Assembly: GCA_045540815.1 (NCBI GenBank)
Contig: JAZQHY010000040.1
Coordinates: forward strand, 8,539 to 72,538
DNA length: 64,000 bases
Reading direction: 5' to 3'
DNA from: Clostridia bacterium
Lineage (GTDB): Bacteria > Bacillota > Clostridia > UMGS1810
This document shows positions 9,899 through 25,589 of this stretch, piece by piece; the first letter of the stretch is position 1; every line of letters begins with the position of its first letter. Under the pieces are notes generated by a model. The model searched no databases. It saw nothing but the letters and a program-made list of their open reading frames with translations, and had not been told where the DNA came from. A program made the translations under genes and the position numbers.

Positions 9899-10247
9899 GG
9901 GGGCGCAATGGTTTCGACGGGGATGTTGAAGCCGGAGGAGCGAGTAGTTGCAGAGACAACTATAAAACTCTAAACTTTAAAATTAAACGCTAACGATAAT
10001 TTAGCTTACGCTGCCTAATTAACGGCAGCCGTTCTTACTCAGGCTACCGCACCTGAGATAAGAGCGTCATCTTCGCGGTGAACGTGAGCAGGTAAAGTTT
10101 TGAGCCTGCCATGAATAATGAAACTACCAAGCATTAGAGTTTGTTTGTGGACTCTACTGTGAGGGAAATTGTGACCACAAACTACACTCGTAGCGCCTTG
10201 GGTGAATAGATTTTCGGACAGGAGTTCGATTCTCCTCGCCTCCACCA
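9899..10247 (+). ncRNA. ssrA: tmRNA (SsrA), tag reading frame 9989-10018
   Basis: 5' GGGGGCGCAATGGTTTCGACGGGG and 3' GGAGTTCGATTCTCCTCGCCTCCACCA. The internal ORF GCT AAC GAT AAT TTA GCT TAC GCT GCC TAA encodes ANDNLAYAA. Confidence 0.95.
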
Positions 10248-10250
10248 AAA

Positions 10251-10284
10251 AATATCACAGGCTTTTGCCTGTGATATTTTTTTA
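10251..10284 (+). terminator. tmRNA terminator
   Basis: AATATCACAGGC-TTTT-GCCTGTGATATT followed by a T-run. Confidence 0.85.
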
Positions 10285-10294
10285 TTAGATAAGA

Positions 10295-10307
10295 GAGAAT
10301 CGAACTC
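10295..10307 (-). repeat. Inverted 13-nt copy of the tmRNA T-arm
   Basis: GAGAATCGAACTC is the exact reverse complement of 10222-10234. Confidence 0.8.
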
Positions 10308-10431
10308 AACTATCATCTCCCTTTTTTGGTAAGCAGCAAGGTGTTATGCATAAAAAATTTAATTTTTCTACTATATTATATCTTTTGTTTATGAAAAATG
10401 ACGAAAGTTGATTATTTTTCTGAACTACTAG

Positions 10432-10460
10432 TTGAAAACAGATAGTTGATGTGATATAAT
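10432..10460 (+). promoter_or_regulatory. Consensus sigmaA promoter of the redox operon
   Basis: TTGAAA (10432-10437), 17 nt, TATAAT (10455-10460), with an upstream TG. Confidence 0.65.
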
Positions 10461-10486
10461 ATATCTCGGTTAGGATTCAAAGGAGA

Positions 10487-10504
10487 TTGTTAAAAATATA
10501 ACAA
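10487..10504 (+). promoter_or_regulatory. Candidate Rex operator
   Basis: TTGTTAAAAATATAACAA compared with the clostridial Rex consensus TTGTTAANNNNTTAACAA has one mismatch. It lies in the 5' leader just after the promoter. Confidence 0.5.
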
Positions 10505-10645
10505 AGCTTTTTGGGCGTTAACCATACAAGCGGATTTATCTGTTTGAGATTTTTTTGGTGACGAAGGGCGATGCCCGTAGGTATATCTGCATTAAAAATA
10601 AAACACAGTATGACAAACAAAAAACATTAAAAAAGGAGTAGACAA

Positions 10646-11590
10646 ATGAACAAAATCACGATTATTGGTAGCGGAAGCGTTGGTTCAACAGTAGCTTACA
10701 CTCTTACCGTAGGGGGAATTGCGTCGGAGATAGTTATTATTGATATCAACAACGAAAAAGCGCTTGGCGAAGCGCTAGATATTAGACAGGGTATCCCTTT
10801 CTATAATCCATGCCAGATTTACGCAGGAAGTTATCAGGATGCTGCAGGCTCTGATATAGTTATCGTAACATCAGGACTTCCAAGAAAAGCAGGTCAGTCA
10901 AGACTTGAGCTTGCACAGACAAATATTGATGTATTAAGAAGCATCACGCCTGAAATTACACGTTATGCACCAGACGCAGTATATCTATTTGTAAGTAATC
11001 CCGTTGATATACTTACTTACGCGTTTACAAAATGGTCAGGTATCCCAGAAAGCCGTATCATTGGTTCTGGTACAGTTTTAGATACAGCAAGACTTCGTGC
11101 AAGACTTTCTGAATATTATAAAATCAGCCAGAAAAATGTTCACGCATATGTACTAGGCGAGCATGGAGATTCTTCATTTGTTCCGTGGTCACTTGCAAAC
11201 ATTTCAAACGTGCCTATCGCAGAATGTCACAAGTGTTTCTGTGCAAAAGACAGTGTTCTCCCTGAGCTTGATTATGCTGAAACTGAAGAGTATGTAAAAA
11301 AATCAGGCGGTGTGGTAATAGAAAGAAAAGGTGCTACATTCTATGCAGTATCTATGTCAGTTGCACATATCTGTAAATGTCTTCTTAGCAGTATGGATTC
11401 TACAATGACTATATCTACTATGATGCACGGCGAGTATGGCGTGGAAGATGTATGCTTAAGTACACTTAGCACAGTAGGAAATATGGGAGTACGTGAAAAG
11501 GTTATGCTTCCTCTAAGTGATGATGAAATCAGAAAACTTCACGCTAGTGCAGATAAACTTAAAGATATTATTAAAAACGTTAATATATAA
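10646..11590 (+). CDS. L-lactate/malate dehydrogenase family enzyme, with Arg at the Q102-equivalent specificity position
   Basis: KITIIGSGSVGST Rossmann fold and GEHGDS catalytic-His motif. The loop SGLPRKAGQSRLEL aligns without gaps to the LDH loop [14 protein letters not shown]. Confidence 0.85.
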   Translation: MNKITIIGSGSVGSTVAYTLTVGGIASEIVIIDINNEKALGEALDIRQGIPFYNPCQIYAGSYQDAAGSDIVIVTSGLPRKAGQSRLELAQTNIDVLRSITPEITRYAPDAVYLFVSNPVDILTYAFTKWSGIPESRIIGSGTVLDTARLRARLSEYYKISQKNVHAYVLGEHGDSSFVPWSLANISNVPIAECHKCFCAKDSVLPELDYAETEEYVKKSGGVVIERKGATFYAVSMSVAHICKCLLSSMDSTMTISTMMHGEYGVEDVCLSTLSTVGNMGVREKVMLPLSDDEIRKLHASADKLKDIIKNVNI

Positions 11591-11614
11591 TGAAGAAAAT
11601 TAGGAGGATGAAAA

Positions 11615-12991
11615 ATGGAGTATCGTATAGAACACGATTCCATGGGCGAAGTGAAAGTGCCTGCAGATAAGCTTTGGGGCGCACAGACACAGAGAAGCCA
11701 TGAGAATTTTGAAATAGGTGTGAACATTGAAACTATGCCTCGTGAGATAACTCACGCATTTGGTATACTAAAAAAAGCTGCAGCACAGGCAAACAGCTCT
11801 CTTCGTCCTGAAAAGATGACTGCGCAGAAGCTTTCAGCTATAGAAAAAGCTTGCGACGAGGTTATATCGGGAGAGCTTAATGATAACTTCCCGCTTGTAG
11901 TATGGCAGACAGGTTCTGGTACACAGTCAAATATGAATGCAAACGAGGTTATAGCAAACAGAGGAAACCAGATAGCAGGCGAAAAAATTCTTCATCCAAA
12001 TGATGATGTAAATATGAGCCAGTCATCAAACGATACATTCCCTACTGCAATGCATATCGCAGCAGTTTTGATGCTTGAAGATAAGCTTATCCCTGCAGCT
12101 AAAACTTTAATCGATACCTTCATTCGTCTTGAAAAAGAAAACGAAGGCATAGTAAAGAGCGGCAGAACTCACCTTCAGGACGCTACTCCTATTACATTTT
12201 CACAGGAGATAAGCGGTTGGAGAAGTAGCCTTGAAAGAGATGTAGAGCTTATTAAGCGTGCTATAGAGCCACTTAGAGAGCTTGCGCTTGGCGGTACAGC
12301 CGTTGGTACAGGTCTAAACGCACCAAAGGGCTTTGGCGAGCTTGTTGCCGAGAAGGTTACAAACCTTACAGGTAAGAAATTCATTACTGCAGGCAATAAA
12401 TTCCACGCTCTTACTTCTAAAGACGAGCTTGTATTTGCACACGGCGCTATAAAGGCTCTTGCGTGCGATATGATGAAGATAGCAAACGACGTTAGATGGC
12501 TTGCAAGCGGACCTAGAGATGGTCTTGGAGAGATATTCATTCCTGAAAACGAGCCGGGTTCATCTATTATGCCGGGCAAGGTAAACCCTACACAGTGCGA
12601 GGCTGTTACTATGGTTGCCGTTCAGGTAATGGGTAACGACGTAGCTGTAGGCGTTGCAGCATCACAGGGTAACTTCGAGCTTAACGTATTTATGCCTGTA
12701 TGCGTGTACAACTTCTTACAGTCTGCAAGACTTCTTGCGGAAGCAATTCTTTCATTTAATAAGAACTGCGCAGTTGGCATCAAGGCAAACAAAGAAAAGA
12801 TGCATCACAATCTTCACAATTCACTTATGCTTGTTACCGCGCTAAATCCGTACATCGGTTACGAAAATGCGGCAAAGACAGCAAAGAAGGCATTTAAAGA
12901 TAACATTTCTCTAAAACAGGCTTGTGTAGAGCTTGGATTTTTAACCGAGGAGAAATTTGATGAAGTTTTCCATCCTGAACAGATGGTGTGA
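11615..12991 (+). CDS. fumC: Class II fumarate hydratase
   Basis: DSMGEVKVPADKLWGAQTQRS, WQTGSGTQSNMN, GSSIMPGKVNPTQCE. Confidence 0.93.
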   Translation: MEYRIEHDSMGEVKVPADKLWGAQTQRSHENFEIGVNIETMPREITHAFGILKKAAAQANSSLRPEKMTAQKLSAIEKACDEVISGELNDNFPLVVWQTGSGTQSNMNANEVIANRGNQIAGEKILHPNDDVNMSQSSNDTFPTAMHIAAVLMLEDKLIPAAKTLIDTFIRLEKENEGIVKSGRTHLQDATPITFSQEISGWRSSLERDVELIKRAIEPLRELALGGTAVGTGLNAPKGFGELVAEKVTNLTGKKFITAGNKFHALTSKDELVFAHGAIKALACDMMKIANDVRWLASGPRDGLGEIFIPENEPGSSIMPGKVNPTQCEAVTMVAVQVMGNDVAVGVAASQGNFELNVFMPVCVYNFLQSARLLAEAILSFNKNCAVGIKANKEKMHHNLHNSLMLVTALNPYIGYENAAKTAKKAFKDNISLKQACVELGFLTEEKFDEVFHPEQMV

Positions 12992-13006
12992 TTGGAGGAA
13001 TAGTAA

Positions 13007-13795
13007 ATGAAGGTAGCATATTTCCCGGGCTGTACTTTAAAGACTAAAGCCAAGGATTTAGATAAATATGCAAGAAAATGTGCCGAGGTGCTTGGTATAG
13101 AGCTAGAGGAAATCGAGGCTTGGCAGTGTTGCGGCGGCGTGTTTACTACAAACAAAAACGAAATTGCAACAAAGCTATCAAGTGTGCGTGCACTAAAGGC
13201 GGCACAGGAAAAGAATCAGATGCTTGTATCTGTATGCTCTGCTTGTCACAATGTTATAAAGCAGACTAACAATATGATGCAGACTGACGACGAATTTGCG
13301 TCAAAGGTTAACAACTATATGGCACCTGAAAGCTATAGCGGCGAAACAAAAGTTCTTCACTATTTAGAGCTTCTTCGTGACGTAGTAGGCTTTGACAAGG
13401 TGAAAGAAAAAGTGGTTAACTCGCTAGAGGGTAAAAAAGTAGCTGCTTATTACGGCTGTCTGCTTCTTCGTCCCGGTAAGGTAATGGCAATGGATGACGT
13501 GGAAAACCCTACTATTATAGAAGATTTAATTAAAGCACTTGGCGGTGAGCCTGTTGTATATCCGTACAGAAATGAATGCTGCGGCGGATATGTGACTATG
13601 GAAAACCCTGACCTTGCAAAGGCGAAGAGTCAAAAGGTTACATCAAGTGCTAAAAACGGCGGCGCAGAAGTAATACTTACTGCATGCCCTTTATGTAAAT
13701 ACAATTTAGAAAAAAACGGCACAGACGTTCCTGTAATATATCTTACAGAGCTTCTTGCCGAAGCGCTTGGAGTAAAGGAGGGGGACAATGAATAA
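13007..13795 (+). CDS. hdrB: Heterodisulfide reductase subunit B-like protein (two CCG domains)
   Basis: AWQCCGG..CSACH and NECCGG..CPLCK motifs. 262 aa. Confidence 0.85.
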   Translation: MKVAYFPGCTLKTKAKDLDKYARKCAEVLGIELEEIEAWQCCGGVFTTNKNEIATKLSSVRALKAAQEKNQMLVSVCSACHNVIKQTNNMMQTDDEFASKVNNYMAPESYSGETKVLHYLELLRDVVGFDKVKEKVVNSLEGKKVAAYYGCLLLRPGKVMAMDDVENPTIIEDLIKALGGEPVVYPYRNECCGGYVTMENPDLAKAKSQKVTSSAKNGGAEVILTACPLCKYNLEKNGTDVPVIYLTELLAEALGVKEGDNE

Positions 13796-14180
13796 TTCAT
13801 TAAAGAATCTTCAGTCGGAAATCATCCGCCAGAGCGGTGTTAATCCGAAAAAGTGTATGAAATGCGGAAAATGCTCTGCTACTTGTCCTGCTTACGATGC
13901 TATGGAATACCATCCACACCAGTTTGTGAGTATGGTTGAATCAGGAGATATTGAACCTCTTTTAAAATCAGAGTCATTATACACTTGTTTATCTTGTTTT
14001 GCGTGCATCGACAGATGTCCTAGAGGCGTTGAGCCTGCAAAGATAGTTGAGGCAGTAAGGCTTGAGGTTATAAAGAAACAGGGCGCAAACCACATGACTG
14101 CAAACGATGTTCCAAATCTATTAGACGAGGATATTCCTCAGCAGGCACTTGTTAGCGCATTTAGAAAATACAGTAAATAA
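13788..14180 (+). CDS. hdrC: Heterodisulfide reductase subunit C-like 4Fe-4S protein
   Basis: CMKCGKCSATCP and CLSCFACIDRCP. Overlaps the hdrB stop by 8 nt. Confidence 0.8.
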   Translation: MNNSLKNLQSEIIRQSGVNPKKCMKCGKCSATCPAYDAMEYHPHQFVSMVESGDIEPLLKSESLYTCLSCFACIDRCPRGVEPAKIVEAVRLEVIKKQGANHMTANDVPNLLDEDIPQQALVSAFRKYSK

Positions 14181-14194
14181 GGAGGAAAAGGCAA

Positions 14195-16189
14195 ATGCAA
14201 AGAATAGGCGTATTCGTGTGCTGGTGCGGAACTAACATAGCCGGCACTGTGGATGTAGAGGCAGTATCTAAAGCTTTAGCAAATGAGCCGGGTGTTGTCT
14301 TTTCCACAAACTATCAGTATATGTGTTCTCAGGCAGGTCAGGACATTATAATTAACGCCGTTAAAGAGCACAACCTAACAGGCATCGTGGTATGTTCTTG
14401 TTCACCAAGAATGCACGAGGCTACATTTAGAAAAACTGCGGCTGCAGCAGGATTAAATCCATACATGGTTGAGATAGCAAACATCCGTGAGCAGTGTTCA
14501 TGGGTACACAAGGATATGGCTACAGGTACAGAAAAAGCTATAATCCTAGGCAAAGCAGCGGTTGCAAAGGTTAACCTAAACGCTCCACTTACACCTGGCG
14601 AAAGCCCTGTAACAAAGAGAGCGCTTGTAATCGGCGGCGGTATCGCAGGTATTCAGACTGCACTTGATATTGCAGAGGCAGGCTTTAAAGTAGATATCGT
14701 TGAGAAAAAATCTACTATCGGTGGTAAGATGGCACAGCTTGACAAGACATTCCCTACTCTTGACTGTGCGGCTTGTATCCTTACACCAAAGATGGTTGAT
14801 GTTGCTCAAAACGAAAACATCCGCATATTCTCATACAGCGAGGTAGAGGATGTAACAGGTTTCGTAGGAAACTTTGATGTTAAGATAAGAAAGAAAGCAC
14901 GCTATGTTAAAGAGGACGTATGTACAGGTTGCGGTATCTGTACAGAAAAATGTCCTGTTAAAAACGTTCCAAACGAGTTTAACCTTGGTATGGACAATCG
15001 TCGTGCTATATACATTCCGTTTGCACAGGCAGTTCCAAAGGTTGCTACTATCGACCCTAATGCTTGTAATATGCTTAAAAACGGAAAATGCGGTGTATGT
15101 TCTAAAGTATGTACCGCAGGCGCTATAGATTATACACAAAAAGATGAAATAATTGAAGAAAAATATGGTGCAATTGTTGCTGCTACAGGTTTTAACCCTA
15201 TCAGCATGGACAAATTTGACGAGTTTGCGTACAATCAGTCGAAAGATGTCATTACATCACTTGAATTTGAAAGACTAACAAACGCGGCAGGTCCATCTGC
15301 AGGTAAGCTTGTAAGACCGTCTGACGGCAAACACCCTCACACAATTGTTTTTGTACAGTGTGTAGGTTCAAGATGCTCATCTTGCGCAGAAAAAGGTAAA
15401 GAGTATTGCTCAAAGATTTGCTGTATGTACACTGCAAAACACGCAATGCTTACAAGAGATAAGTATCCTGATACTGACGTGTATGTATTCTATATAGACG
15501 TACGTACTCCTGGTAAGGCTTTTGACGAGTTCTACCGCAGAGCAGTAGAGGAATACGGCGTTCATTATATAAAAGGTATGGTTGGTAAGGTTGCTCCAGA
15601 GGGCGATAAGCTTATGGTGCAGGCATCTGACCTTCTTGCAAATAAACAGCTTCATATAGAAGCAGACCTTGTAGTATTAGCTGCGGCTATCGAGCCTGAC
15701 AAGTCAGCAAGACCGCTTGCTACAAAGCTAACTGCAAGTATGGATACAAACGATTTCTTCACAGAGGCACATCCAAAGCTTCGTCCTGTAGAAAGCCCAA
15801 CTGCTGGTGTATTCTTATCAGGTGCGTGTCAGGGTCCAAAAGATATCCCTGAAACAGTATCACAGGCGAGTGCGGCTGCTGCAAAGGTTATAGGCCTTCT
15901 TGCAAAAGATAAGCTTACAGGTAACCCTTGCGTAGCAGGTGCAAACGAGATGATGTGTAACGGATGTTCGTCTTGTGAAAAGGTATGTCCTTACGGCGCT
16001 ATCACATATGTGGACAAAGAATTCCGTATGCCTGACAGAACTACTGCTATTAGACGTGTTGCTTCGGTTAACGAGGCTGTGTGTCAGGGCTGTGGTGCTT
16101 GTACAGTTGCTTGTCCTTCAGGCGCTATGGACCTAAAAGGCTTTGCCAATAAACAGATTATGGCGGAGGTGGATGCTATATGCAAATAA
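14195..16189 (+). CDS. hdrA: Heterodisulfide reductase subunit A-like FAD/Fe-S protein
   Basis: 664 aa with VIGGGIAGIQTALDIAEAG, several CxxCxxCxxxCP ferredoxin motifs and an N-terminal Cys cluster. Confidence 0.85.
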   Translation: MQRIGVFVCWCGTNIAGTVDVEAVSKALANEPGVVFSTNYQYMCSQAGQDIIINAVKEHNLTGIVVCSCSPRMHEATFRKTAAAAGLNPYMVEIANIREQCSWVHKDMATGTEKAIILGKAAVAKVNLNAPLTPGESPVTKRALVIGGGIAGIQTALDIAEAGFKVDIVEKKSTIGGKMAQLDKTFPTLDCAACILTPKMVDVAQNENIRIFSYSEVEDVTGFVGNFDVKIRKKARYVKEDVCTGCGICTEKCPVKNVPNEFNLGMDNRRAIYIPFAQAVPKVATIDPNACNMLKNGKCGVCSKVCTAGAIDYTQKDEIIEEKYGAIVAATGFNPISMDKFDEFAYNQSKDVITSLEFERLTNAAGPSAGKLVRPSDGKHPHTIVFVQCVGSRCSSCAEKGKEYCSKICCMYTAKHAMLTRDKYPDTDVYVFYIDVRTPGKAFDEFYRRAVEEYGVHYIKGMVGKVAPEGDKLMVQASDLLANKQLHIEADLVVLAAAIEPDKSARPLATKLTASMDTNDFFTEAHPKLRPVESPTAGVFLSGACQGPKDIPETVSQASAAAAKVIGLLAKDKLTGNPCVAGANEMMCNGCSSCEKVCPYGAITYVDKEFRMPDRTTAIRRVASVNEAVCQGCGACTVACPSGAMDLKGFANKQIMAEVDAICK

Positions 16190-16617
16190 ACGGAGAATTC
16201 AAACCACTTATTGTAGCATTCTGCTGCAACTGGTGTTCATATGCAGGAGCTGACCTTGCGGGTAACAACCGTTTGGCATATCCTGAAAATGTTAAAATAA
16301 TAAAAGTGCCTTGTTCTTGCAGAGTAAACCCTATGTTTATCCTTCGTGCATTCCAGAAGGGTGCAGACGGTGTAATCCTTTGCGGTTGCCACCCTGGTGA
16401 TTGTCATTACACATCGGGTAACTACTTTACAAGAAGAAGAATGTCGCTTCTATTCTCAATGCTTAACTTCCTTGGCGTAGAAAAGGAAAGAGTAAGAGTT
16501 GAATGGGTATCTGCGGCAGAGGGTGCGAAGTTTGCCACTACTATGAACGAGTTCACAGAGGCGGTAACCGCACTTGGCGAAAATAAGAGATTGGAGGATT
16601 TGAGATGCAAAAGATAA
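16180..16617 (+). CDS. mvhD: MvhD/FlxD-like hydrogenase iron-sulfur (delta) subunit
   Basis: FCCNWCSYAGADLAG...CGCHPGDCHY. Overlaps the hdrA stop. Confidence 0.8.
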   Translation: MQINGEFKPLIVAFCCNWCSYAGADLAGNNRLAYPENVKIIKVPCSCRVNPMFILRAFQKGADGVILCGCHPGDCHYTSGNYFTRRRMSLLFSMLNFLGVEKERVRVEWVSAAEGAKFATTMNEFTEAVTALGENKRLEDLRCKR

Positions 16618-17600
16618 CAAGAGATGAGCTTTTGAAAAAAGCATCTGAACTTCTCCAAAACGGCACAGTAAATAGAGTGCTTGGCTGGAAAACAGGTGAA
16701 TTTGACTACGATGTAACACCATTTGTGTTTGGCGATATAGAGTCACTTGAAAAGGATTTTGTGTACAACGATTTTTGCGGTGCAAACTTCTCAAAATACC
16801 TTGTAGCCGAAACCAAAAAAGAAGGCAAGGTGCTTGTATTTCTAAAACCTTGCGACACATACAGCTTCAATCAGCTTTTAACTGAGCACAGATTTAACCG
16901 CGAGAACGTATATGCGGTTGGTATCCCGTGTGAAGGTATGGCTGACGTTGATAAAGTAAAGAAAATCGCTGGCGACGGCATCAGCTCTATATCGTTTGCA
17001 GATGGCAAAATCGTAGTAGACACTATCTATGATGGTGAAAAGGCTATCGACGCAAAAGACGTGCTACTAGAAAGATGCGTAGTATGTAAGAGTAAAAAAT
17101 GCGTTGCATACGACGAGCTTTTAGGTGAAAACGGTGAGGTAATCGATTCTACACGTTTTGACGAGGTTGAAAAACTTGAAAATATGTCACCTGACGAAAG
17201 ATTTGCATTCTGGCAGAATGAACTTTCTCGTTGTATCAGATGTAATGCGTGCCGTGACATATGTCCTGCTTGTACTTGTGAGAAATGCGTGTTTGACAAC
17301 CCTGAATCAGGCGTTGAAAACAAAGCCATTTCTGACAGCTTCGAGGAAAAAATGTTCCATATTATAAGAGCATTCCACGTTGCAGGCAGATGTACAGACT
17401 GTGGCGAGTGCTCAAGAGTATGCCCACAGGGAATTAAACTTCACCTTCTAAACAGAAAGTTTATTAAGGATATAAACACATTCTATGGTGAATATCAGGC
17501 AGGAGAGGTAGAAGGTAACCGCGCTCCGCTTGTAGATTACACACTAGATGATATCGAGCCTGACGAGGCTGTGGAGAAAGGAGATGGCACAAATGCGTAA
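16605..17600 (+). CDS. Fe-S oxidoreductase subunit (FlxC-like, poly-ferredoxin type)
   Basis: CIRCNACRDICPACTCEKC and CTDCGECSRVCP. 331 aa. Translationally coupled to mvhD. Confidence 0.6.
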   Translation: MQKITRDELLKKASELLQNGTVNRVLGWKTGEFDYDVTPFVFGDIESLEKDFVYNDFCGANFSKYLVAETKKEGKVLVFLKPCDTYSFNQLLTEHRFNRENVYAVGIPCEGMADVDKVKKIAGDGISSISFADGKIVVDTIYDGEKAIDAKDVLLERCVVCKSKKCVAYDELLGENGEVIDSTRFDEVEKLENMSPDERFAFWQNELSRCIRCNACRDICPACTCEKCVFDNPESGVENKAISDSFEEKMFHIIRAFHVAGRCTDCGECSRVCPQGIKLHLLNRKFIKDINTFYGEYQAGEVEGNRAPLVDYTLDDIEPDEAVEKGDGTNA

Positions 17601-18612
17601 ATGTAAACTATCAAACCTTTCAAAGATTTTTGAAAAAATCAGTGAAAATGCATCTCTTTATCTTCCTGTAGACACCGACAACGGCGCAGAGTATAAAAAA
17701 TGGGAAAACGGCATGGAAATGTCAAACTCTCTTAACACAAACAGAAGTCCTAAAGACTTTTTCTTCCCACAGTCAGAAGAACTTATGGAATTTAAGACAG
17801 AGGGTAAGAACATCGAAGTTATCGACACAAGAAAAGACGCCGAAGACTTTGTGGTATTTGGCGTAAGAGCTTGTGACGTAAGAAGCTTTGACGTGCTTGA
17901 CAGAGTATTTTTGGTTGAACCTTACGACAGCTACTATGCTAATAAGCGTGAGCATTCAACTATCGTTTCTATGGCTTGCACAAGACCTACTGAAACTTGC
18001 TTCTGTAACACATTCGGCATAGACGCTACCGACCCTAAGGGCGACGTATCTTGCTGGAAGACAGATGACGAAATATTCTTTATGGCAAACACCGAAAAAG
18101 GCGAAAAGTTTATGTCAGTAATAGAAAGCATTACAGAAGAAACTGACGATAAAGAGGTAAATGCGCAGAAGGAAAAGACAAAAGAGGTTATGAAAAAGCT
18201 TCCTTTGGCAAATCTAACTGCTGATGCATTTGGCGGAGGACTTACAGAGAAGTATTTTGACGCGCCAGAGTGGAAAGAACTTTCGCAGGCTTGCCTAGGC
18301 TGTGGTACTTGTACTTTCGTATGCCCTACTTGTCAGTGCTATGATATAAAGGATTATAACACAGGAAAAGGTGTTATCCGTTTCAGATGCTGGGATTCGT
18401 GTATGTATTCTGATTTTACAAAGATGGCACACGGAAACTCAAGAAACTCACAAGTAGAGAGATTCAGACAGAGATTTATGCACAAGCTTGTGTATTATCC
18501 TGAAAATAACGACGGAATATTCGGTTGCGTAGGTTGCGGCAGATGCCTTGCAAAATGCCCAATCTCTATGAACATCGTTAAAGTAATGAAAACACTTGGA
18601 GGAAAAGCGTAA
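17593..18612 (+). CDS. Fe-S oxidoreductase subunit (FlxB / AsrA / sulfhydrogenase-beta-like)
   Basis: CLGCGTCTFVCPTCQCYD and CVGCGRCLAKCP. The ATG at 17593 has good spacing from AAGGAG. The ORF-track start at 17548 is probably too long. Confidence 0.6.
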   Translation: MRKCKLSNLSKIFEKISENASLYLPVDTDNGAEYKKWENGMEMSNSLNTNRSPKDFFFPQSEELMEFKTEGKNIEVIDTRKDAEDFVVFGVRACDVRSFDVLDRVFLVEPYDSYYANKREHSTIVSMACTRPTETCFCNTFGIDATDPKGDVSCWKTDDEIFFMANTEKGEKFMSVIESITEETDDKEVNAQKEKTKEVMKKLPLANLTADAFGGGLTEKYFDAPEWKELSQACLGCGTCTFVCPTCQCYDIKDYNTGKGVIRFRCWDSCMYSDFTKMAHGNSRNSQVERFRQRFMHKLVYYPENNDGIFGCVGCGRCLAKCPISMNIVKVMKTLGGKA

Positions 18613-19445
18613 TGAGTCATATAGAAGAAACCTTGATTCCTAAAATCGGCGTTATAACAGACGTGCGTATAGATACTCCTGATGTTAAGACATTCAGAGT
18701 AGTTACACCTGACGGCAAAAAGGCGTTTGACCACAAGCCAGGTCAGTGTGCAATGCTTTCTATTCCGGGCGTAGGCGAAGCGATGTTTTCTATCACATCA
18801 TCACCTACAAACACCGAATTTATGGAATTTTCAATTAAAAAATGCGGTTGTGTAACAGAATGGCTTCATCAGGCAGAGGTGGGTCAGCAGATTACTATTC
18901 GTGGACCTTACGGCAGACCATTCCCTGTAGATGATGAATTTGCAGGTAAAGATATGCTGTTCATCGCAGGCGGTATCGGTCTTGCACCACTTCGCTCTGT
19001 TATCAACTATTGTCGTCACTACCGCGACAGATACGGTAAAATAGATATCGTATATGGTTCAAGAAGTAAAGACGATTTGGTTGATTATCAGGAAATTATA
19101 AATGAATGGGTAGGCGACGACAACGTAAACGTTTACCTTACAATAGACAATCCGCAGGAGGGGTGGGACGGCCACGTTGGTTTCGTACCAAACTATGTAA
19201 AAGAGCTTGGCTTTGATACAAACAAAACCGCAGTACTTTGCGGACCTCCTATAATGATTAAGTTCACACTTCAAGGTCTTGTAGATATGGGCTTTGACAA
19301 AACTCAGGTTTACACAACAATGGAATTAAAAATGAAATGCGGCGTAGGTAAATGCGGCAGATGTAATATCGGCTCAAAATACGTATGTAAAGACGGTCCG
19401 GTATTCCGTTGTGATGAACTTGACGAACTACCTGATGAATATTAA
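18612..19445 (+). CDS. FAD/NAD(P)-binding oxidoreductase with C-terminal 2Fe-2S cluster (FlxA / AsrB / PyrK-like)
   Basis: FNR-like fold (PGQCAMLSIPGVGE, IAGGIGLAPLRS) and CGVGKCGRCNIG. The start overlaps the previous stop (TAATG). Confidence 0.7.
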   Translation: MSHIEETLIPKIGVITDVRIDTPDVKTFRVVTPDGKKAFDHKPGQCAMLSIPGVGEAMFSITSSPTNTEFMEFSIKKCGCVTEWLHQAEVGQQITIRGPYGRPFPVDDEFAGKDMLFIAGGIGLAPLRSVINYCRHYRDRYGKIDIVYGSRSKDDLVDYQEIINEWVGDDNVNVYLTIDNPQEGWDGHVGFVPNYVKELGFDTNKTAVLCGPPIMIKFTLQGLVDMGFDKTQVYTTMELKMKCGVGKCGRCNIGSKYVCKDGPVFRCDELDELPDEY

Positions 19446-19462
19446 TTAAGGAGGAAATTCTA

Positions 19463-20137
19463 ATGGAAAATATGGTAAATATATTTCTTTTCGGTAAAAA
19501 ATACGAAGTACCTGAAAACCTTACTATAATGAGCGCAATGGAATACGCTGGCTATCAGTTAGTGCGTGGTTGCGGTTGCAGAAACGGTTTTTGCGGTGCG
19601 TGTGCTACTATTTACAGAATAAAAGGCGATAGAGAATTAAAAGCTTGTCTTGCTTGTCAGACAAAGGTTGAGGACAATATGTACATTGCTACACTTCCGT
19701 TCTTCCCTCTTGTAAAACAGGTTTATGATATGAACACTGTTTCAATAGACGAGCAGGTAATGATGCAGCTTTATCCTGAAATCTACGCTTGTATCGGCTG
19801 TAATGCTTGTACAAAAGCTTGTACACAGGAGCTAAACGTTATGCAGTACATTGCTTACGCACAGAGAGGTGATTTTGAAAAATGCGCTGAGGAGTCATTT
19901 GACTGCGTAATGTGCGGTGTATGTTCTTCAAGATGTCCTGCAGGTATATCTCATCCGCAGGTTGCAATGCTTGCAAGAAGAATTAATGGTAAATACCTTG
20001 CTCCTAAATGCGACCACCTTGAAAACAGAGTTCAGGAAATCAAAGACGGCACATTTACAGACCTTATCGAAGCGCTTATGCAGAAGCCAATCGATGAGAT
20101 TAAAGAGCTTTACAACACTAGAGAGATTGAGAAATAA
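19463..20137 (+). CDS. Succinate dehydrogenase/fumarate reductase iron-sulfur subunit-like protein
   Basis: N-terminal 2Fe-2S pattern (GCGCRNGFCGACA) plus CIGCNACTKAC and CVMCGVCSSRCP. 224 aa. Confidence 0.7.
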   Translation: MENMVNIFLFGKKYEVPENLTIMSAMEYAGYQLVRGCGCRNGFCGACATIYRIKGDRELKACLACQTKVEDNMYIATLPFFPLVKQVYDMNTVSIDEQVMMQLYPEIYACIGCNACTKACTQELNVMQYIAYAQRGDFEKCAEESFDCVMCGVCSSRCPAGISHPQVAMLARRINGKYLAPKCDHLENRVQEIKDGTFTDLIEALMQKPIDEIKELYNTREIEK

Positions 20138-20151
20138 GGAGGCGGCTTAAA

Positions 20152-21747
20152 ATGTATTCAGAAAAACTAAAAGAATCTATAAAGGCGGTTGAAGCTGCCA
20201 GAGATAAAAACACTGCTTACGAGCCAGAAAGAATGACCGCTCAGCAGAAAGAAGACCTTTTAAAAGCTTATCATCCTGACTACAAGGAATCAGAATTTTC
20301 TGTGCTTGAGATAGGTCCAAACAAAGGCGATAAGGTGCCTCACGAGTTGGCCGCTATGCTACAGGCTCATTCAAGAGTTAACCCTAGTGATATCGACCTT
20401 ACAAACCCTGACTACGATGTAGACGTACTTATCATCGGCGGTGGCGGTGCGGGTTCTTCTGCAGCTATCGAGGCTCACGAGGCAGGCGCAGATGTTATGA
20501 TAGTTACAAAGCTTAGAATAGGCGATGCCAACACTATGATGGCAGAGGGCGGTATTCAGGCTGCTGATAAGGAGAACGACTCTCCTGCAATCCATTTTGT
20601 AGACGCATTCGGTGGCGGCCACTTTGCTGCAAAGAGAGAGCTTCTATCAAAGCTTGTATGCGACGCTCCTGATGCTATACTATGGCTTTCGGAGCTTGGC
20701 GTTGAATTTGATAAAGACGAAGATGGCAGAATGGTTACTACTCACGGTGGTGGTACATCTAGAAAACGTATGCACGCTGCAAAGGACTATTCAGGTGCAG
20801 AAATCATGCGTACTCTTCGTGACGAAGTATTAAACAGAAATATCCCTGTAGTTGATTTCACATCAGCTATAGAGTTAATACTTGATGAAAACGGCAACGC
20901 AGCAGGTGCGGTGCTAATGAATATGGAAACAAAGGAAATCCTAGTTGCAAAGGCTAAAACTGTTATCATCGCTACAGGCGGTGCAGGCAGAATGCACTAT
21001 CAGGGCTTCCCTACTTCAAACCATTACGGTGCTACAGCAGATGGTCTTGTACTTGGTTACAGGGCAGGTGCAAAATTACTTTATGCTGAAACACTTCAGT
21101 ATCACCCAACAGGCGCTGCATACCCTGAACAGATTTTCGGTGCGCTAGTTACTGAAAAAGTTCGTTCACTTGGTGCAAAGCTTGTAAACTCTAAGGGTGA
21201 AGTATTTATGCATCCACTAGAAACTCGTGACGTTGCTGCAGCCTCTATTATCCGTGAATGTAACGACAGAGGCAACGGCATCGAAACAGGTAACGGTCTT
21301 GGCGTATGGCTAGACACTCCAATGATTGAAAAAATTGGCGGTGAAGGTACTATTGAGGCTAGAATTCCTGCTATGATGAGAATGTTTGGTAAATACGGCA
21401 TAGATATCCGTAAAGAACCTATCCTTGTTTACCCTACACTTCACTATCAGAACGGCGGTCTTGACATAAATGCTGACTGTATGACTACAAATGTTGAAAA
21501 CCTATTTGTAGCAGGAGAGGCTGTTGGCGGTATCCACGGCAGAAACAGACTTATGGGTAACTCACTTCTTGATATCATCGTATTCGGCAGAAGCGCAGGT
21601 AAGAGTGCTGCCACTAAATGTAAAGATGTTAAGGTTGGAAAGCTTACACTTGACCACGTGAATAAATTTGAAAAGGAAATAGCTGATGCGAAATACGAAA
21701 CAAACGAAGTATCTCCTAAGCTTTTACCTGATTACACAAGAAAATAA
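20152..21747 (+). CDS. Fumarate reductase/succinate dehydrogenase-family flavoprotein, soluble type
   Basis: DVLIIGGGGAGSSAA, YHPTG, GIHGRNRLMGNSLLD. It has NTMMAEGG where covalent-FAD enzymes carry a His. Confidence 0.75.
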   Translation: MYSEKLKESIKAVEAARDKNTAYEPERMTAQQKEDLLKAYHPDYKESEFSVLEIGPNKGDKVPHELAAMLQAHSRVNPSDIDLTNPDYDVDVLIIGGGGAGSSAAIEAHEAGADVMIVTKLRIGDANTMMAEGGIQAADKENDSPAIHFVDAFGGGHFAAKRELLSKLVCDAPDAILWLSELGVEFDKDEDGRMVTTHGGGTSRKRMHAAKDYSGAEIMRTLRDEVLNRNIPVVDFTSAIELILDENGNAAGAVLMNMETKEILVAKAKTVIIATGGAGRMHYQGFPTSNHYGATADGLVLGYRAGAKLLYAETLQYHPTGAAYPEQIFGALVTEKVRSLGAKLVNSKGEVFMHPLETRDVAAASIIRECNDRGNGIETGNGLGVWLDTPMIEKIGGEGTIEARIPAMMRMFGKYGIDIRKEPILVYPTLHYQNGGLDINADCMTTNVENLFVAGEAVGGIHGRNRLMGNSLLDIIVFGRSAGKSAATKCKDVKVGKLTLDHVNKFEKEIADAKYETNEVSPKLLPDYTRK

Positions 21748-21816
21748 TAACTTATTATGGGCGGTTGGCAACAATCGCCCGTAAGTATGACAAAAAAAGA
21801 AAAGAGGTCATTTTAA

Positions 21817-23070
21817 ATGAATTTATTTGGTGGAGTTATTCCTATAACAGGAATTTCATTTTTAATGTTTTGTGTATTTGCTATTGCAGCAGTAGGTTTT
21901 GCGCTTGGCAGAATAACAATTAAAGGTGTTGCTCTTGGCGATGCAGCAGTATTTATTATGGCGCTTGTGTTCGGTGCATTTTTCTTTAAACCGCTAGAAG
22001 CACAGCTTATGGTAGACGGAACAGCATATGCTGAAAAAGCGCTTGAAATCATCGAAAATCTTGGTCTTATCCTGTTTGTAACATCTGTTGGCTTTATCGC
22101 AGGACCAAAATTCTTCGGTAATATGAAGAGAAACTTTAAGTCTTACGTATTACTAGGTCTTGTAGTTATCCTTATGGGCGGACTTGCAGCAGTAGCTTGT
22201 ATATATATGGGTGAAATATTTGGCTATGGCGCAAGCATCACAGATCAGGACGGCTTTGTAGCTATGATAGTTGGCCTTCTTTCAGGCTCACTTACATCTA
22301 CCCCTGCATTCTCTGCAGCAAAAGCTACAGTTGCTCCTGAATTTACAAGCCTTGTATCAGTTGGACACGGTATCGCGTACATATTCGGTGTAGTTGGTGT
22401 TGTACTTTTCGTTCAGATTATACCAAAGCTTACTAAAGCTGATATGGCGGCTGAAAGAGCTAAAATTACTGCAGTTGCTGACGGTTCACAGAAAAAAACA
22501 TTTGCTGGTAAACTACTTGAGCTTGACGAGCATGGCTTTGGTGCATTTGCACTTGCGGCAGTAGTTGGAACTATATTAGGTAAGATAAAAATACCTCTAA
22601 GTGCCGAAGGACTTTCTGGAACTTGCTTCTCGCTTACTACTACAGGCGGTTGCCTTTTAGCATCACTTGTATTTGGTCACTTTGGAAGAATTGGTAAGCT
22701 TTCTATTATGCCAAAAGGAAGTACTCTTAAGCTTTTCCGCGAGCTTGGACTTATGCTTTTCCTAATCGGCGCAGGTATCCCTGGCGGTGCGGACTTTGTG
22801 GCTAACTTCGACCCTATGTACTTTATCTATGGTATTATAATGACTATCGTACCTTTGGTTATTGGCTTCTTGTTTGCTAAATATGTGCTTAAGCTTAGCC
22901 TTCTTAACAACCTTGGTTCAATCACAGGTGGTATGACAAGTACACCTGCACTAGGAACTCTAATCAGTACAGCAAAAACAGAGGACGTTGCAGCAGCTTA
23001 TGCGGCTACGTACCCTATCGCACTAATCGCGGTTGTGCTTGTATCACAGTTCCTTATCATATTGTTCTAA
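21817..23070 (+). CDS. AAE (aspartate:alanine exchanger / YidE-YbjL) family transporter, short form without a central TrkA-C domain
   Basis: 417-aa polytopic protein with two similar halves. Terminal motif GSITGGMTSTPALG. Confidence 0.55.
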   Translation: MNLFGGVIPITGISFLMFCVFAIAAVGFALGRITIKGVALGDAAVFIMALVFGAFFFKPLEAQLMVDGTAYAEKALEIIENLGLILFVTSVGFIAGPKFFGNMKRNFKSYVLLGLVVILMGGLAAVACIYMGEIFGYGASITDQDGFVAMIVGLLSGSLTSTPAFSAAKATVAPEFTSLVSVGHGIAYIFGVVGVVLFVQIIPKLTKADMAAERAKITAVADGSQKKTFAGKLLELDEHGFGAFALAAVVGTILGKIKIPLSAEGLSGTCFSLTTTGGCLLASLVFGHFGRIGKLSIMPKGSTLKLFRELGLMLFLIGAGIPGGADFVANFDPMYFIYGIIMTIVPLVIGFLFAKYVLKLSLLNNLGSITGGMTSTPALGTLISTAKTEDVAAAYAATYPIALIAVVLVSQFLIILF

Positions 23071-23087
23071 TATAGATAATATATATA

Positions 23088-23119
23088 AAAAAGGATATGC
23101 ATTTGCATATCCTTTTTTA
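23088..23119 (+). terminator. Intrinsic terminator ending the redox operon
   Basis: AGGATATGC-ATTT-GCATATCCT followed by TTTTT. Confidence 0.8.
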
Positions 23120-23143
23120 GTTGAAAAATTTTATAGGAAACTA

Positions 23144-23176
23144 TTGACAAATCGAGTTAGTTATGCTAAACTAACT
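23144..23176 (+). promoter_or_regulatory. feo promoter with an overlapping palindromic operator
   Basis: TTGACA (23144-23149), 17 nt, TAAACT (23167-23172). The inverted repeat AGTTAGTT-N6-AACTAACT (23155-23176) covers the -10 element. Confidence 0.55.
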
Positions 23177-23226
23177 AATGCAATAGAAATAATAATTCTT
23201 ATTTTTTAGGTTTAAAGGTGAGATAT

Positions 23227-23439
23227 ATGAATTTAAGACAGGCAGAGGAAGGAAAAGAATATATCATCAGCCGTATAGAAACAGACGATGAAGAACTAGA
23301 TGCGTTTCTGTTTTCACTAGGTTGCTATTCAGGCGAGCCAATTACAGTTATCTCCCACCGAAAAGGTGGATGTGTGGTTTCTATAAAGGACGGCAGATAC
23401 AGTATAGACAATCATTTGGCAGAAGCTATTATTATTTAA
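23227..23439 (+). CDS. feoA: Ferrous iron transport protein A
   Basis: 70 aa, small SH3-like FeoA pattern. Lies upstream of feoB. The ATG at 23227 follows AAAGGTGAG. Confidence 0.85.
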   Translation: MNLRQAEEGKEYIISRIETDDEELDAFLFSLGCYSGEPITVISHRKGGCVVSIKDGRYSIDNHLAEAIII

Positions 23440-23555
23440 TGAAATTTAAAAGCGGCTGCCTTTAAAAATGATTTGCGGTTAGCTTTATCTAACTCGAAAG
23501 CATTTAAATTTTTTATATTAAAAAATTTTAGCATAAATGACAGGAGGAAAAAAGT

Positions 23556-25589
23556 ATGAGAATTGCTTTAACAGGCAATCCAAACAGTGGTAAAACTACT
23601 ATGTACAACGCACTTACAGGTCAGAATGAGAGCGTCGGAAACTGGGCAGGTGTTACCGTTGAAAAGAAGGAACATATAATTAAAAAGAGTTTTTGCATTG
23701 GAAACGAGGAATTAGTAGCGGTAGACTTACCCGGTGCATATTCAATGTCACCATTTACATCGGAAGAAAGCATAACAAGTGATTATGTAAAAAACGAAAA
23801 CCCTGATGTTATTATAAATATCGTTGACGCTACAAACCTTAGCAGAAGTTTGTTTTTCACTACTCAGTTATTAGAACTCGGTGTGCCTGTGGTTGTTGCG
23901 CTTAACAAAACAGATATAAACGAGAAAAAAGAAACGGAAATTGATGAAAGTGCACTTGCTAAAAAGCTAGGCTGTCCTGTAGTAAAGACCACCTCTACAA
24001 CTTCAGAAGGCTTAAAGGAGGCAGTTGCAGCAGCACTTGAGCTAAAGGGTAAGGGTCAGAAAGCTCCTTACTTACAGGGCGATATCGACCTTACAAGCAA
24101 AAAAGCAGTCGAGGAAGCTGACAGAAAGAGATTTGAGTTTGTAAATAAACTGGTATCACAGGTTGAAGATAGAAAAGTACATACAAACGAAAAGAATTTT
24201 CAGGATAAAATAGACGCAGTACTTACAAATAAGTGGCTTGGTATTCCAATATTTGCAGTTGTAATGTATCTTGTGTTCTGGATTTCACAGGTAGGTCCGG
24301 GTGTATGGATAGCGGAAGGCTATGAATTTGAATCTGGCTACACTATTCCTGGTCTTGTAACCCTTCTTGAAGGTTTTCAGAGCTGGGTAGGAGGATTTTT
24401 GGAAGGTGCAAACCCGCTTCTTTACGCGCTTTTAATTGACGGTGTAATTGGCGGTGTGATAGCGGTTATAGGATTTTTACCACTTGTAATGGTAATGTAT
24501 TTCCTTATCGCACTACTTGAAGACTGCGGATATATGGCGAGAGTATCGGTAGTACTTGACCCTATATTTAAAAAGGTTGGTCTGTCTGGTAAATCTGTAA
24601 TTCCGTTTGTAATAGGTACAGGCTGTGCTATTCCTGGCGTAATGGCGTCACGTACTATCAGAAACGAAAGAGAACGCAGAGCTACTGCAATGCTTGCTCC
24701 GTTTATGCCTTGCGGTGCAAAGCTTCCTGTTATTGCGTTATTTGCAGGTGCATTCTTTAAAGATGCTGCGTGGGTTGGTCCGTTAATGTACCTTGTTGGT
24801 ATAGTTATCATATTCTTTGGTGCACTTTTGGTAAACAGAATCACCGGCAACAGCAAGAAAACATCATACTTTATAATAGAGCTTCCCGAGTACAAAGCGC
24901 CAAGCTTTTACAGAGCGTTTGGCTCAATGTGCTCACGTGGTTGGGCGTACATAGTAAAAGCGGCTACAATTATACTTCTATGTAACACGGTAGTACAGAT
25001 AATGCAGACATTTAGCTGGAGCTTCACAGAGGCGGCATCGGCAGATGAGTCAATTCTTGCGTCTATCGCGGGCCCGTTTGCATATCTCCTCGTTCCTGTT
25101 GTAGGTGTGCTTTCGTGGCAGCTTGCGGCAGCTGCAATTACAGGCTTTATTGCTAAAGAAAACGTTGTTGGTACACTCGCAGTATGCTTTGTCGGACTTG
25201 AAAATCTTATAGATGCAGAAGCACTTGAGCTTATGGAAGGTGCAGGTGCAGAGGTTGCAACAGCATTTGCTATTACAAAGGTTGCTGCTCTTGCATACCT
25301 AATGTTTAACCTGTTTACACCGCCTTGCTTTGCGGCTATCGGCGCTATGAATGCTGAAATGAAGAGTGCTAAATGGCTATGGGGTGGTATAGGTCTTCAA
25401 ATCGTAACAGGTTATACTGTAGGATTTTTGGTGTATCAGATCGGCACACTTATTACCACGGGCTCGGTTGGGGCAGGCTTTGTTCCCGGTCTTGTTGCAG
25501 TTGTAGTAATGGCGGGTATAATCGCATATTTATGTGTAAAACCGAATAAAAGCGCAAATTTTTTGAGTAATAAAAAAGTTTCTGCGTAG
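23556..25589 (+). CDS. feoB: Ferrous iron transport protein B
   Basis: IALTGNPNSGKTT G-domain followed by a large polytopic membrane domain. 677 aa. Confidence 0.95.
   Translation: MRIALTGNPNSGKTTMYNALTGQNESVGNWAGVTVEKKEHIIKKSFCIGNEELVAVDLPGAYSMSPFTSEESITSDYVKNENPDVIINIVDATNLSRSLFFTTQLLELGVPVVVALNKTDINEKKETEIDESALAKKLGCPVVKTTSTTSEGLKEAVAAALELKGKGQKAPYLQGDIDLTSKKAVEEADRKRFEFVNKLVSQVEDRKVHTNEKNFQDKIDAVLTNKWLGIPIFAVVMYLVFWISQVGPGVWIAEGYEFESGYTIPGLVTLLEGFQSWVGGFLEGANPLLYALLIDGVIGGVIAVIGFLPLVMVMYFLIALLEDCGYMARVSVVLDPIFKKVGLSGKSVIPFVIGTGCAIPGVMASRTIRNERERRATAMLAPFMPCGAKLPVIALFAGAFFKDAAWVGPLMYLVGIVIIFFGALLVNRITGNSKKTSYFIIELPEYKAPSFYRAFGSMCSRGWAYIVKAATIILLCNTVVQIMQTFSWSFTEAASADESILASIAGPFAYLLVPVVGVLSWQLAAAAITGFIAKENVVGTLAVCFVGLENLIDAEALELMEGAGAEVATAFAITKVAALAYLMFNLFTPPCFAAIGAMNAEMKSAKWLWGGIGLQIVTGYTVGFLVYQIGTLITTGSVGAGFVPGLVAVVVMAGIIAYLCVKPNKSANFLSNKKVSA

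Follow-up and report, generated by a model that had tools for sequence, protein, structure and literature searches.

An arginine-102 protein on a lactate dehydrogenase scaffold is the probable malate dehydrogenase at the head of a putative clostridial succinate operon

The product of an open reading frame (ORF) that heads a fumarase and fumarate reductase operon in a Clostridia genome is very probably an NADH-dependent L-malate dehydrogenase (MDH) built on the canonical scaffold of an allosteric L-lactate dehydrogenase (LDH), with MDH as its main activity. This reading, well supported by an invariant Arg102, the place of the gene in the operon, its being the only gene of its family in the genome, the presence of a GTP-dependent PEPCK, and the occurrence in relatives of separate LDHs with Q102 and E199, agrees with the original prediction of a probable malate dehydrogenase as far as sequence can carry it. 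New here are a large gut and rumen clade whose members are uniformly named "L-lactate dehydrogenase" and carry a fully conserved LDH-type FBP site, and the position of that clade within a polytomy among canonical LDHs. The reasoning that places MDH activity on an LDH scaffold is itself not new, having been published for Ccel_0137 and Cthe_0345 of cellulolytic clostridia (PMC3268733).

Results

A lactate dehydrogenase fold with arginine at the specificity position

The ORF lies in the window, by which we mean the whole 64,000-nt stretch of DNA that was analysed. The ORF and the segments that bear on its specificity are the following, in window positions:

10646..11590, + strand: ORF of an LDH-scaffold dehydrogenase, 314 aa, proposed NADH-dependent L-malate dehydrogenase (oxaloacetate reductase)
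10874..10903, + strand: mobile substrate loop G77-R86 (LDH numbering G99-R109), GLPRKAGQSR, from alignments to LDHs
10883-10885, + strand: AGA codon of Arg80, equivalent to Arg102 by gapless alignment
11096..11149, + strand: FBP-site signature of the LDH type, R151 (R173), H166 (H188) and Y168 (Y190)
11156..11176, + strand: GEHGDSS with the catalytic His173 (H195, codon 11162-11164) and Ser177 (position 199)

An AGGAG ribosome-binding site precedes the ORF, whose product has the Pfam domains Ldh_1_N and Ldh_1_C of the LDH/MDH superfamily. The protein exceeds the NCBIfam cut-offs for L-LDH (NF000824, 354.8 against 339; TIGR01771, 324.2 against 303.55) and misses those for MDH (NF004863, 270.4 against 283; TIGR01763, 207.7 against 351.85), and every named homologue is called "L-lactate dehydrogenase" in its public record; the guess that automated annotation would call the gene ldh was therefore correct. 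The AlphaFold2 model (pLDDT 93.6) matched allosteric L-LDHs in Foldseek with TM 0.91-0.94, and the best 50 matches were all L-LDHs. Such a predicted structure confirms the LDH fold alone and does not discriminate between substrates. Both the exceeded L-LDH cut-offs and the 50 structural matches nevertheless count against the MDH reading.

Residues 70-100 of the 314-aa protein (DIVIVTSGLPRKAGQSRLELAQTNIDVLRSI) were compared by BLASTP with the Geobacillus LDH segment quoted in the original prediction, which is an exact match to residues 76-106 of PDB 1ldn/1ldb. The alignment has no gaps and sets Arg80 opposite Gln102, and HMMER alignments to the solved LDHs 4m1q and 2zqy keep the loop (GLPRKAGQSRLEL) gapless and in the same register. 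The two methods thus agree on the claimed gapless match with Arg at the Gln102 position, and in the alignments to solved LDHs the Arg is not shifted off it. The catalytic set R109, D168, R171 and H195 is complete, and the protein also has the NAD-type D53, T246, GEHGD, Ser at 199 and the R173/H188/Y190 triad. At position 199 this Ser (Ser177) stands where canonical LDHs have Asp or Glu. As predicted, the His motif reads GEHGDS, not the GGHG found in seven type-3 MDHs and in two sequences near their cut-off.

Published diagnostic residue sets are Q102, D/E199 and T246 for LDHs, and R102, M199 and A/S246 for type-3 MDHs (PMC11747225). The pattern in the 314-aa protein is a mixed one, MDH-type at 102, LDH-type in the rest of the frame, and with the acidic residue 199 gone. 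Q102 occurs in all 14 characterised canonical LDHs surveyed in PMC10583557, from which we also take the definition of the FBP-site signature R173/H188/Y190, and is treated there as a strong signature of LDH function. T246, by the account in PMC11747225, is permissive for pyruvate and unfavourable for oxaloacetate, and an intermediate-group MDH that bears it accepts both substrates; its retention in the 314-aa protein counts against the MDH reading.

In the catalytic cycle that we envisage, the mobile loop would shut over the active site, whereupon Arg102 (Arg80) would pair with the C4 carboxylate of oxaloacetate while Arg171 bound the C1 carboxylate. Arg109 would polarise the carbonyl and the His195-Asp168 pair would deliver the proton. 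The Ser that takes the place of the acidic LDH residue 199 would remove a negative charge near the C4-carboxylate pocket.

Arg102 is a fixed trait of a gut and rumen clade

Residue counts for the clade were taken from an alignment of 200 members, made up of 120 close homologues, all 73% or more identical, and 80 species-representative loci with identities of 52-76%. R102, Q107, T246 and D53 are each present in 200/200 (52-100% identity), and the catalytic residues are likewise conserved over all 200; Arg102 is thus neither a chance occurrence nor a sequencing variant. At 199 the clade has S, A, C, M or G, and no member has D or E. Arg102 is a fixed clade trait, coupled to the loss of the acidic residue 199. 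The FBP-site residues are nearly as constant, with R173 in 194, H188 in 198 and Y190 in 194 of the 200. Among 92-144 diverse relatives, too, a non-acidic 199 accompanies R102, and E199 mostly accompanies Q102. One representative (P0129), 720 aa long, contains two LDH-like stretches and would seem to be a tandem fusion.

The distribution of the two forms was followed in 40 sampled relatives. An R102/Q107 orthologue, nearly always adjoining fumC or hdrB, is present in 18, and a Q102/E107/E199 LDH, located away from fumC, in seven. Three of the 40 have both forms, with the R102/Q107/S199 copy adjoining fumC and the Q102/E107/E199 copy elsewhere, as expected of two enzymes with different jobs. In about 15 of the 18 relatives that have the R102 orthologue, it is the sole family member.

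The gene heads a conserved operon preceded by a candidate Rex box

The MDH-candidate gene heads an 11-gene same-strand operon, and a gene for an AAE-type exporter follows 69 nt further on. The leader and downstream features are:

10432..10460, + strand: sigma-70-type promoter match, TTGAAA-17-TATAAT with a TG extension, 11/12, the best in 10200-23600 and a consensus match only
10487..10504, + strand: Rex-type operator-like palindrome TTGTTAAAAATATAACAA, the single match in the window
11615..12991, + strand: FumC, class II fumarate hydratase (TIGR00979, 717.6 bits against a cut-off of 664.75)
13007..16617, + strand: HdrB-like (CCG domains), HdrC-like, HdrA-like and MvhD-like genes
16605..19445, + strand: three Flx-like electron-input genes, for Fe-S, AsrA/HydB-like Fe-S and AsrB/HydG-like FAD/NAD(P)-binding proteins
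19463..21747, + strand: soluble fumarate reductase pair, a 2Fe-2S/4Fe-4S subunit and a flavoprotein
21817..23070, + strand: AspT/YidE/YbjL (AAE) family transporter, putative succinate exporter (TIGR01625, 130.1 bits against a cut-off of 71.95)
23086-23119: terminator-like hairpin after the AAE transporter gene

The two-subunit fumarate reductase is anchorless, and the best family for its flavoprotein is the thiol:fumarate reductase TfrA (NF004900), at 350.9 bits, which is under the cut-off. The entire cluster is present around a 74%-identical homologue, and across species the next gene is fumC or hdrB in 57 of the 65 loci with at least 1.5 kb of downstream sequence. The operon is thus real and kept across species, bearing out the earlier description of a first gene before fumC and a fumarate-reductase-like module. 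In a deep clade member (L111, 53% identity) it is a malic-enzyme gene that comes next.

At about 20 of 80 loci, the MDH gene is followed directly by hdrB in an operon without fumC. Many of these loci are from Lachnospiraceae or Christensenellaceae (examples are L057, L061, L064, L069, L076, L077, L079, L091, L093, L094, L099, L105 and L107), and in such cases the fumarase must lie elsewhere or belong to another class. The mdh-fumC-Flx-Hdr-Frd cluster was also seen in MAGs labelled Treponema, Spirochaetaceae, Sphaerochaetaceae and Spirochaetales (L055, L058, L062, L070, L103), with 55-68% identity to the clostridial gene; either the operon was transferred horizontally in its entirety or the contigs were mis-binned.

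In the leader, the palindrome TTGTTAAAAATATAACAA has one mismatch to the clostridial Rex consensus TTGTTAANNNNTTAACAA and sits after the promoter match. At 21 of 73 species loci, a Rex-type box with two mismatches or fewer lies in the 300 nt before the orthologue, as against 0.7% of shuffled upstream regions. By its sequence, the box suggests NADH/NAD-responsive control of the entire succinate operon, and such a candidate site fits an NADH-responsive, NADH-consuming operon. An Rfam scan found no riboswitch in the leader, its sole match being to a tmRNA upstream. This tmRNA gene (RF00023, 152 bits; window 9899-10247) is directly upstream of the operon promoter.

Genome content, the route to succinate and other possible substrates

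The source genome assembly comprises 1.55 Mb in 69 contigs and is 92.8% complete. The search for a separate ldh or mdh that had been proposed as a check found no second Ldh_1_N/Ldh_1_C gene and no Ldh_2 or Mqo gene in this 92.8%-complete genome, a completeness at which a second LDH/MDH gene could be missing. The same 92.8%-complete genome yielded no ATP-PEPCK, PEP carboxylase or malic enzyme. It does contain a GTP-type PEPCK gene, cut by a contig end (contig C31:15901-16530, L030), and it encodes the alpha subunit of an oxaloacetate decarboxylase and, elsewhere, a D-lactate-dehydrogenase-like 2-hydroxyacid dehydrogenase. The GTP-dependent PEPCK is of the same unusual type as the enzyme in the succinate pathway of P. 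thermosuccinogenes.

With this gene content, a full route from PEP to exported succinate can be written only if ORF 10646-11590 gives the MDH step. In the direction of flux that we infer, GTP-PEPCK would carboxylate PEP to oxaloacetate, the enzyme of ORF 10646-11590 would reduce oxaloacetate to malate, and FumC would convert malate to fumarate. The soluble fumarate reductase, coupled to Flx-Hdr, would then form succinate, which would leave the cell via the AAE transporter. MDH would thus open a succinate branch that is under Rex control and reoxidises NADH.

As the genome's only enzyme of the LDH/MDH family, the protein could form some lactate. That it is a dual-purpose 2-oxoacid reductase, serving the succinate branch with oxaloacetate reduction and also making physiologically relevant L-lactate from pyruvate, is in our view unlikely, even though several observations favour it: the gene is the only family member both here and in most carrier relatives (about 15/18), and the combination of FBP site and Rex box is typical of fermentative ldh genes. 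T246, present in 200/200, is also found in the intermediate-group MDH that takes both substrates (PMC11747225), and overlapping specificities, which weigh against the MDH reading as well, were inferred for the clostridial pair Ccel_0137 and Ccel_2485 by Li et al. 2012 (PMC3268733). Relatives that use a true LDH, however, keep a separate Q102 gene for it, and the D-lactate-dehydrogenase-like enzyme is encoded elsewhere in the genome. Moreover, Arg102 in the engineered Geobacillus enzyme reportedly cuts pyruvate use by orders of magnitude (Wilks 1988).

We regard it as very improbable that the annotation is right as it stands, the protein being a genuine L-lactate dehydrogenase in which Arg102 is tolerated and the adjacency to fumC incidental. 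The curated L-LDH HMM cut-offs that it exceeds, its LDH structural neighbours and an intact allosteric-LDH FBP-site signature would all suit such an enzyme, but Arg102 is invariant and the acidic 199 always absent in the clade, the linkage to fumC or hdrB holds over 52-100% identity and across families, and a Q102 paralogue stands alongside in three relatives. Q102 is, besides, the residue in each of the 14 characterised canonical LDHs (PMC10583557), and the residue pattern is shared by 1Y6J/Cthe_0345, by gene order an orthologue of the primary MDH Ccel_0137 (PMC3268733). Another anionic 2-oxoacid as substrate in place of oxaloacetate (2-oxoglutarate or sulfopyruvate, for example) is hardly credible either: Arg102 signals just a second negative group on the substrate and the family includes enzymes with shifted specificities, but the neighbouring gene is a malate-using one (fumarase in most loci, malic enzyme in one deep member) and the operon is without genes of 2-oxoglutarate or sulfopyruvate pathways. 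What the sequences show are the residue features, their conservation, the operon linkage and the genome content; the preference for oxaloacetate is inferred.

Position of the clade among lactate dehydrogenases

Phylogenies were built quickly under LG+G4 (144 rows) and more carefully under LG+C20 (92 rows), with the seven sequences above the MDH3 (TIGR01763) cut-off as root; the MDH of P. limnophila and published sequences of the "intermediate group" were in neither tree. All GEHG-type sequences stand apart from the MDH3 outgroup, across branches supported at 100/98 and 100/100. The GEHGD-type sequences form one group (100/100), at whose base R102 sequences that have A or M at 199 form a grade. 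The backbone is a polytomy in both the LG+G4 and the LG+C20 trees, and within it neither the clade of ORF 10646-11590 (99/98) nor that of 1Y6J (98/78) is joined to another; the same polytomy includes the Q102 LDH clades of L. casei and B. selenitireducens. Joining the two R102 clades costs 31.6 log-likelihood units and is not rejected (AU p = 0.21).

Within the GEHGD/T246 radiation, the branches with good support require residue 102 to have changed state at least four times. For several R102 sequences the nearest neighbours are, with good support, Q102 sequences (representatives P0205/P0162, L016/P0169, P0261/P0194/P0252 and P0199+P0256), from which we take residue 102 to have switched repeatedly in the LDH-type radiation.

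Carrying R102 together with a complete R173/H188/Y190 in about 97% of its 200 members, the clade may be a natural FBP-gated MDH. Known tetrameric MDHs have no FBP signature and are not allosteric, and a single LDH-to-MDH case is cited in the literature (PMC10583557); hence, of the features described here, only the conserved R-H-Y of an R102 clade could be of interest to specialists. As against that single case, the LDH-to-MDH switch would, on the sequences compared here, be recurrent; alternatively, the clade retained an ancestral Arg, the FBP site having already arisen. The joint proposal of an FBP-gated natural MDH with either history, recurrent switching at residue 102 or an ancestral Arg kept after the origin of the FBP site, is a tentative one, which we consider possible and somewhat doubtful. 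If FBP gating were true, the glycolytic signal that normally triggers lactate formation would trigger the succinate branch instead.

Discussion

Consequences for annotation

The L-LDH name spans hundreds of sequences from gut and rumen Clostridia, with carriers that include Acutalibacteraceae, Oscillospiraceae, Roseburia faecis, Agathobacter, Blautia, Dorea, Faecalicatena and Christensenellaceae. Since the homologues are named L-LDH and the NCBIfam cut-offs admit them, metabolic reconstructions of these gut and rumen microbiomes will over-count lactate producers and overlook the entry reaction of a succinate pathway in which electron bifurcation may conserve energy. 1Y6J and all named members of its clade (P0271-P0390; L112) are also labelled L-LDH, though the C. 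thermocellum gene is a malate-shunt MDH; the L-LDH mislabel of the 1Y6J clade is systematic. A rule that would correct such cases is R102 with a non-acidic 199 in a gene adjoining fumC, hdrB or a malic-enzyme gene. For enzymologists, the clade would be a natural counterpart of the classic Q102R experiment and a candidate FBP-regulated MDH.

Comparison with known systems

The closest precedent is the pair Ccel_0137 and Cthe_0345. Knockout and extract assays in C. cellulolyticum identified Ccel_0137, an LDH paralogue initially predicted to be an LDH, as the primary MDH, and Li et al. 2012 made the Arg-for-Gln102 argument for it and for C. thermocellum Cthe_0345, describing also the Cthe_0345/Cthe_0344 arrangement of MDH and malic enzyme (PMC3268733). 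PDB 1Y6J, deposited as C. thermocellum L-lactate dehydrogenase, has Arg102, and a malic-enzyme gene comes next in the C. thermocellum chromosome; that 1Y6J is Cthe_0345 rests on this gene order and on Li et al. 2012 (PMC3268733). Like Cthe_0345 (1Y6J) and Ccel_0137, the protein studied here combines an LDH scaffold bearing GEHGD, T246 and R173/H188/Y190 with Arg102 and a non-acidic 199, is named L-LDH in databases and adjoins a malate-using gene. It differs in being only about 41% identical, in belonging to a well-supported clade (99/98) that the best tree does not join to that of 1Y6J, although their union is not rejected (AU p = 0.21), in having Q107 and S199 where the Cthe_0345/Ccel_0137 type has E107 and Q199 (R-S-T at residues 102-199-246, as against R-Q-T in 1Y6J), and in its partners, which are fumarase and fumarate reductase (a succinate branch) here and malic enzyme (a malate shunt) there, with L111 as the exception.

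The operon as a whole resembles the succinate operon of Pseudoclostridium thermosuccinogenes, which comprises fumarate hydratase, a Flx-Hdr complex, fumarate reductase and a putative succinate transporter, and whose proposed role is to link the reduction of fumarate to that of ferredoxin (PMC7282089). Comparing domain composition with that description, both have a fumarase, seven Flx/Hdr genes, two fumarate reductase genes and a transporter, in the same order, and the GTP-dependent PEPCK as carboxylating step is common to P. thermosuccinogenes and the source genome. The first gene, by contrast, is that of the MDH here and in most gut and rumen relatives, whereas the description of the P. thermosuccinogenes operon begins with fumarate hydratase (PMC7282089).

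The residue pattern also recalls the Q102R form of Geobacillus stearothermophilus LDH, with Arg102 set in an allosteric LDH framework that keeps T246 and D197. Wilks and co-workers reportedly found in 1988 that the single change Q102R is enough to make the Geobacillus LDH a specific MDH, T246 and D197 being left in place. Unlike that engineered enzyme, the natural clade has also fixed Q107 and lost the acidic 199; the identity of the 314-aa protein to relatives of the Geobacillus enzyme is about 40%.

With type-3 MDHs (TIGR01763; the Bacillus and Chloroflexus type), the protein shares Arg102, NAD dependence and the superfamily, and its loop motif, G-[LIV]-[PA]-R-K-x-G, is similar to that of MDH3. 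The seven MDH3 sequences that exceed the cut-off have R-M-A at 102-199-246 and GGHG, whereas here the motif is GEHGD, 246 is T and not A/S, 199 is S and not M, and the family cut-offs are missed. Membership of the type-3 MDHs was accordingly rejected, with the cut-offs failed, R102 the only diagnostic residue shared and a position outside the MDH3 clade (100/98).

Lastly, the MDH of Planctopirus limnophila is given, in the passage of PMC10583557 that cites Brochier-Armanet and Madern 2021, as the sole documented LDH-to-MDH reversal. The clade described here is like it in being related to canonical LDHs and bearing an MDH-type residue 102, and differs at the FBP-site triad, which is R-H-Y in the clade as against R-D-T in the P. 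limnophila enzyme, described in that source as non-allosteric.
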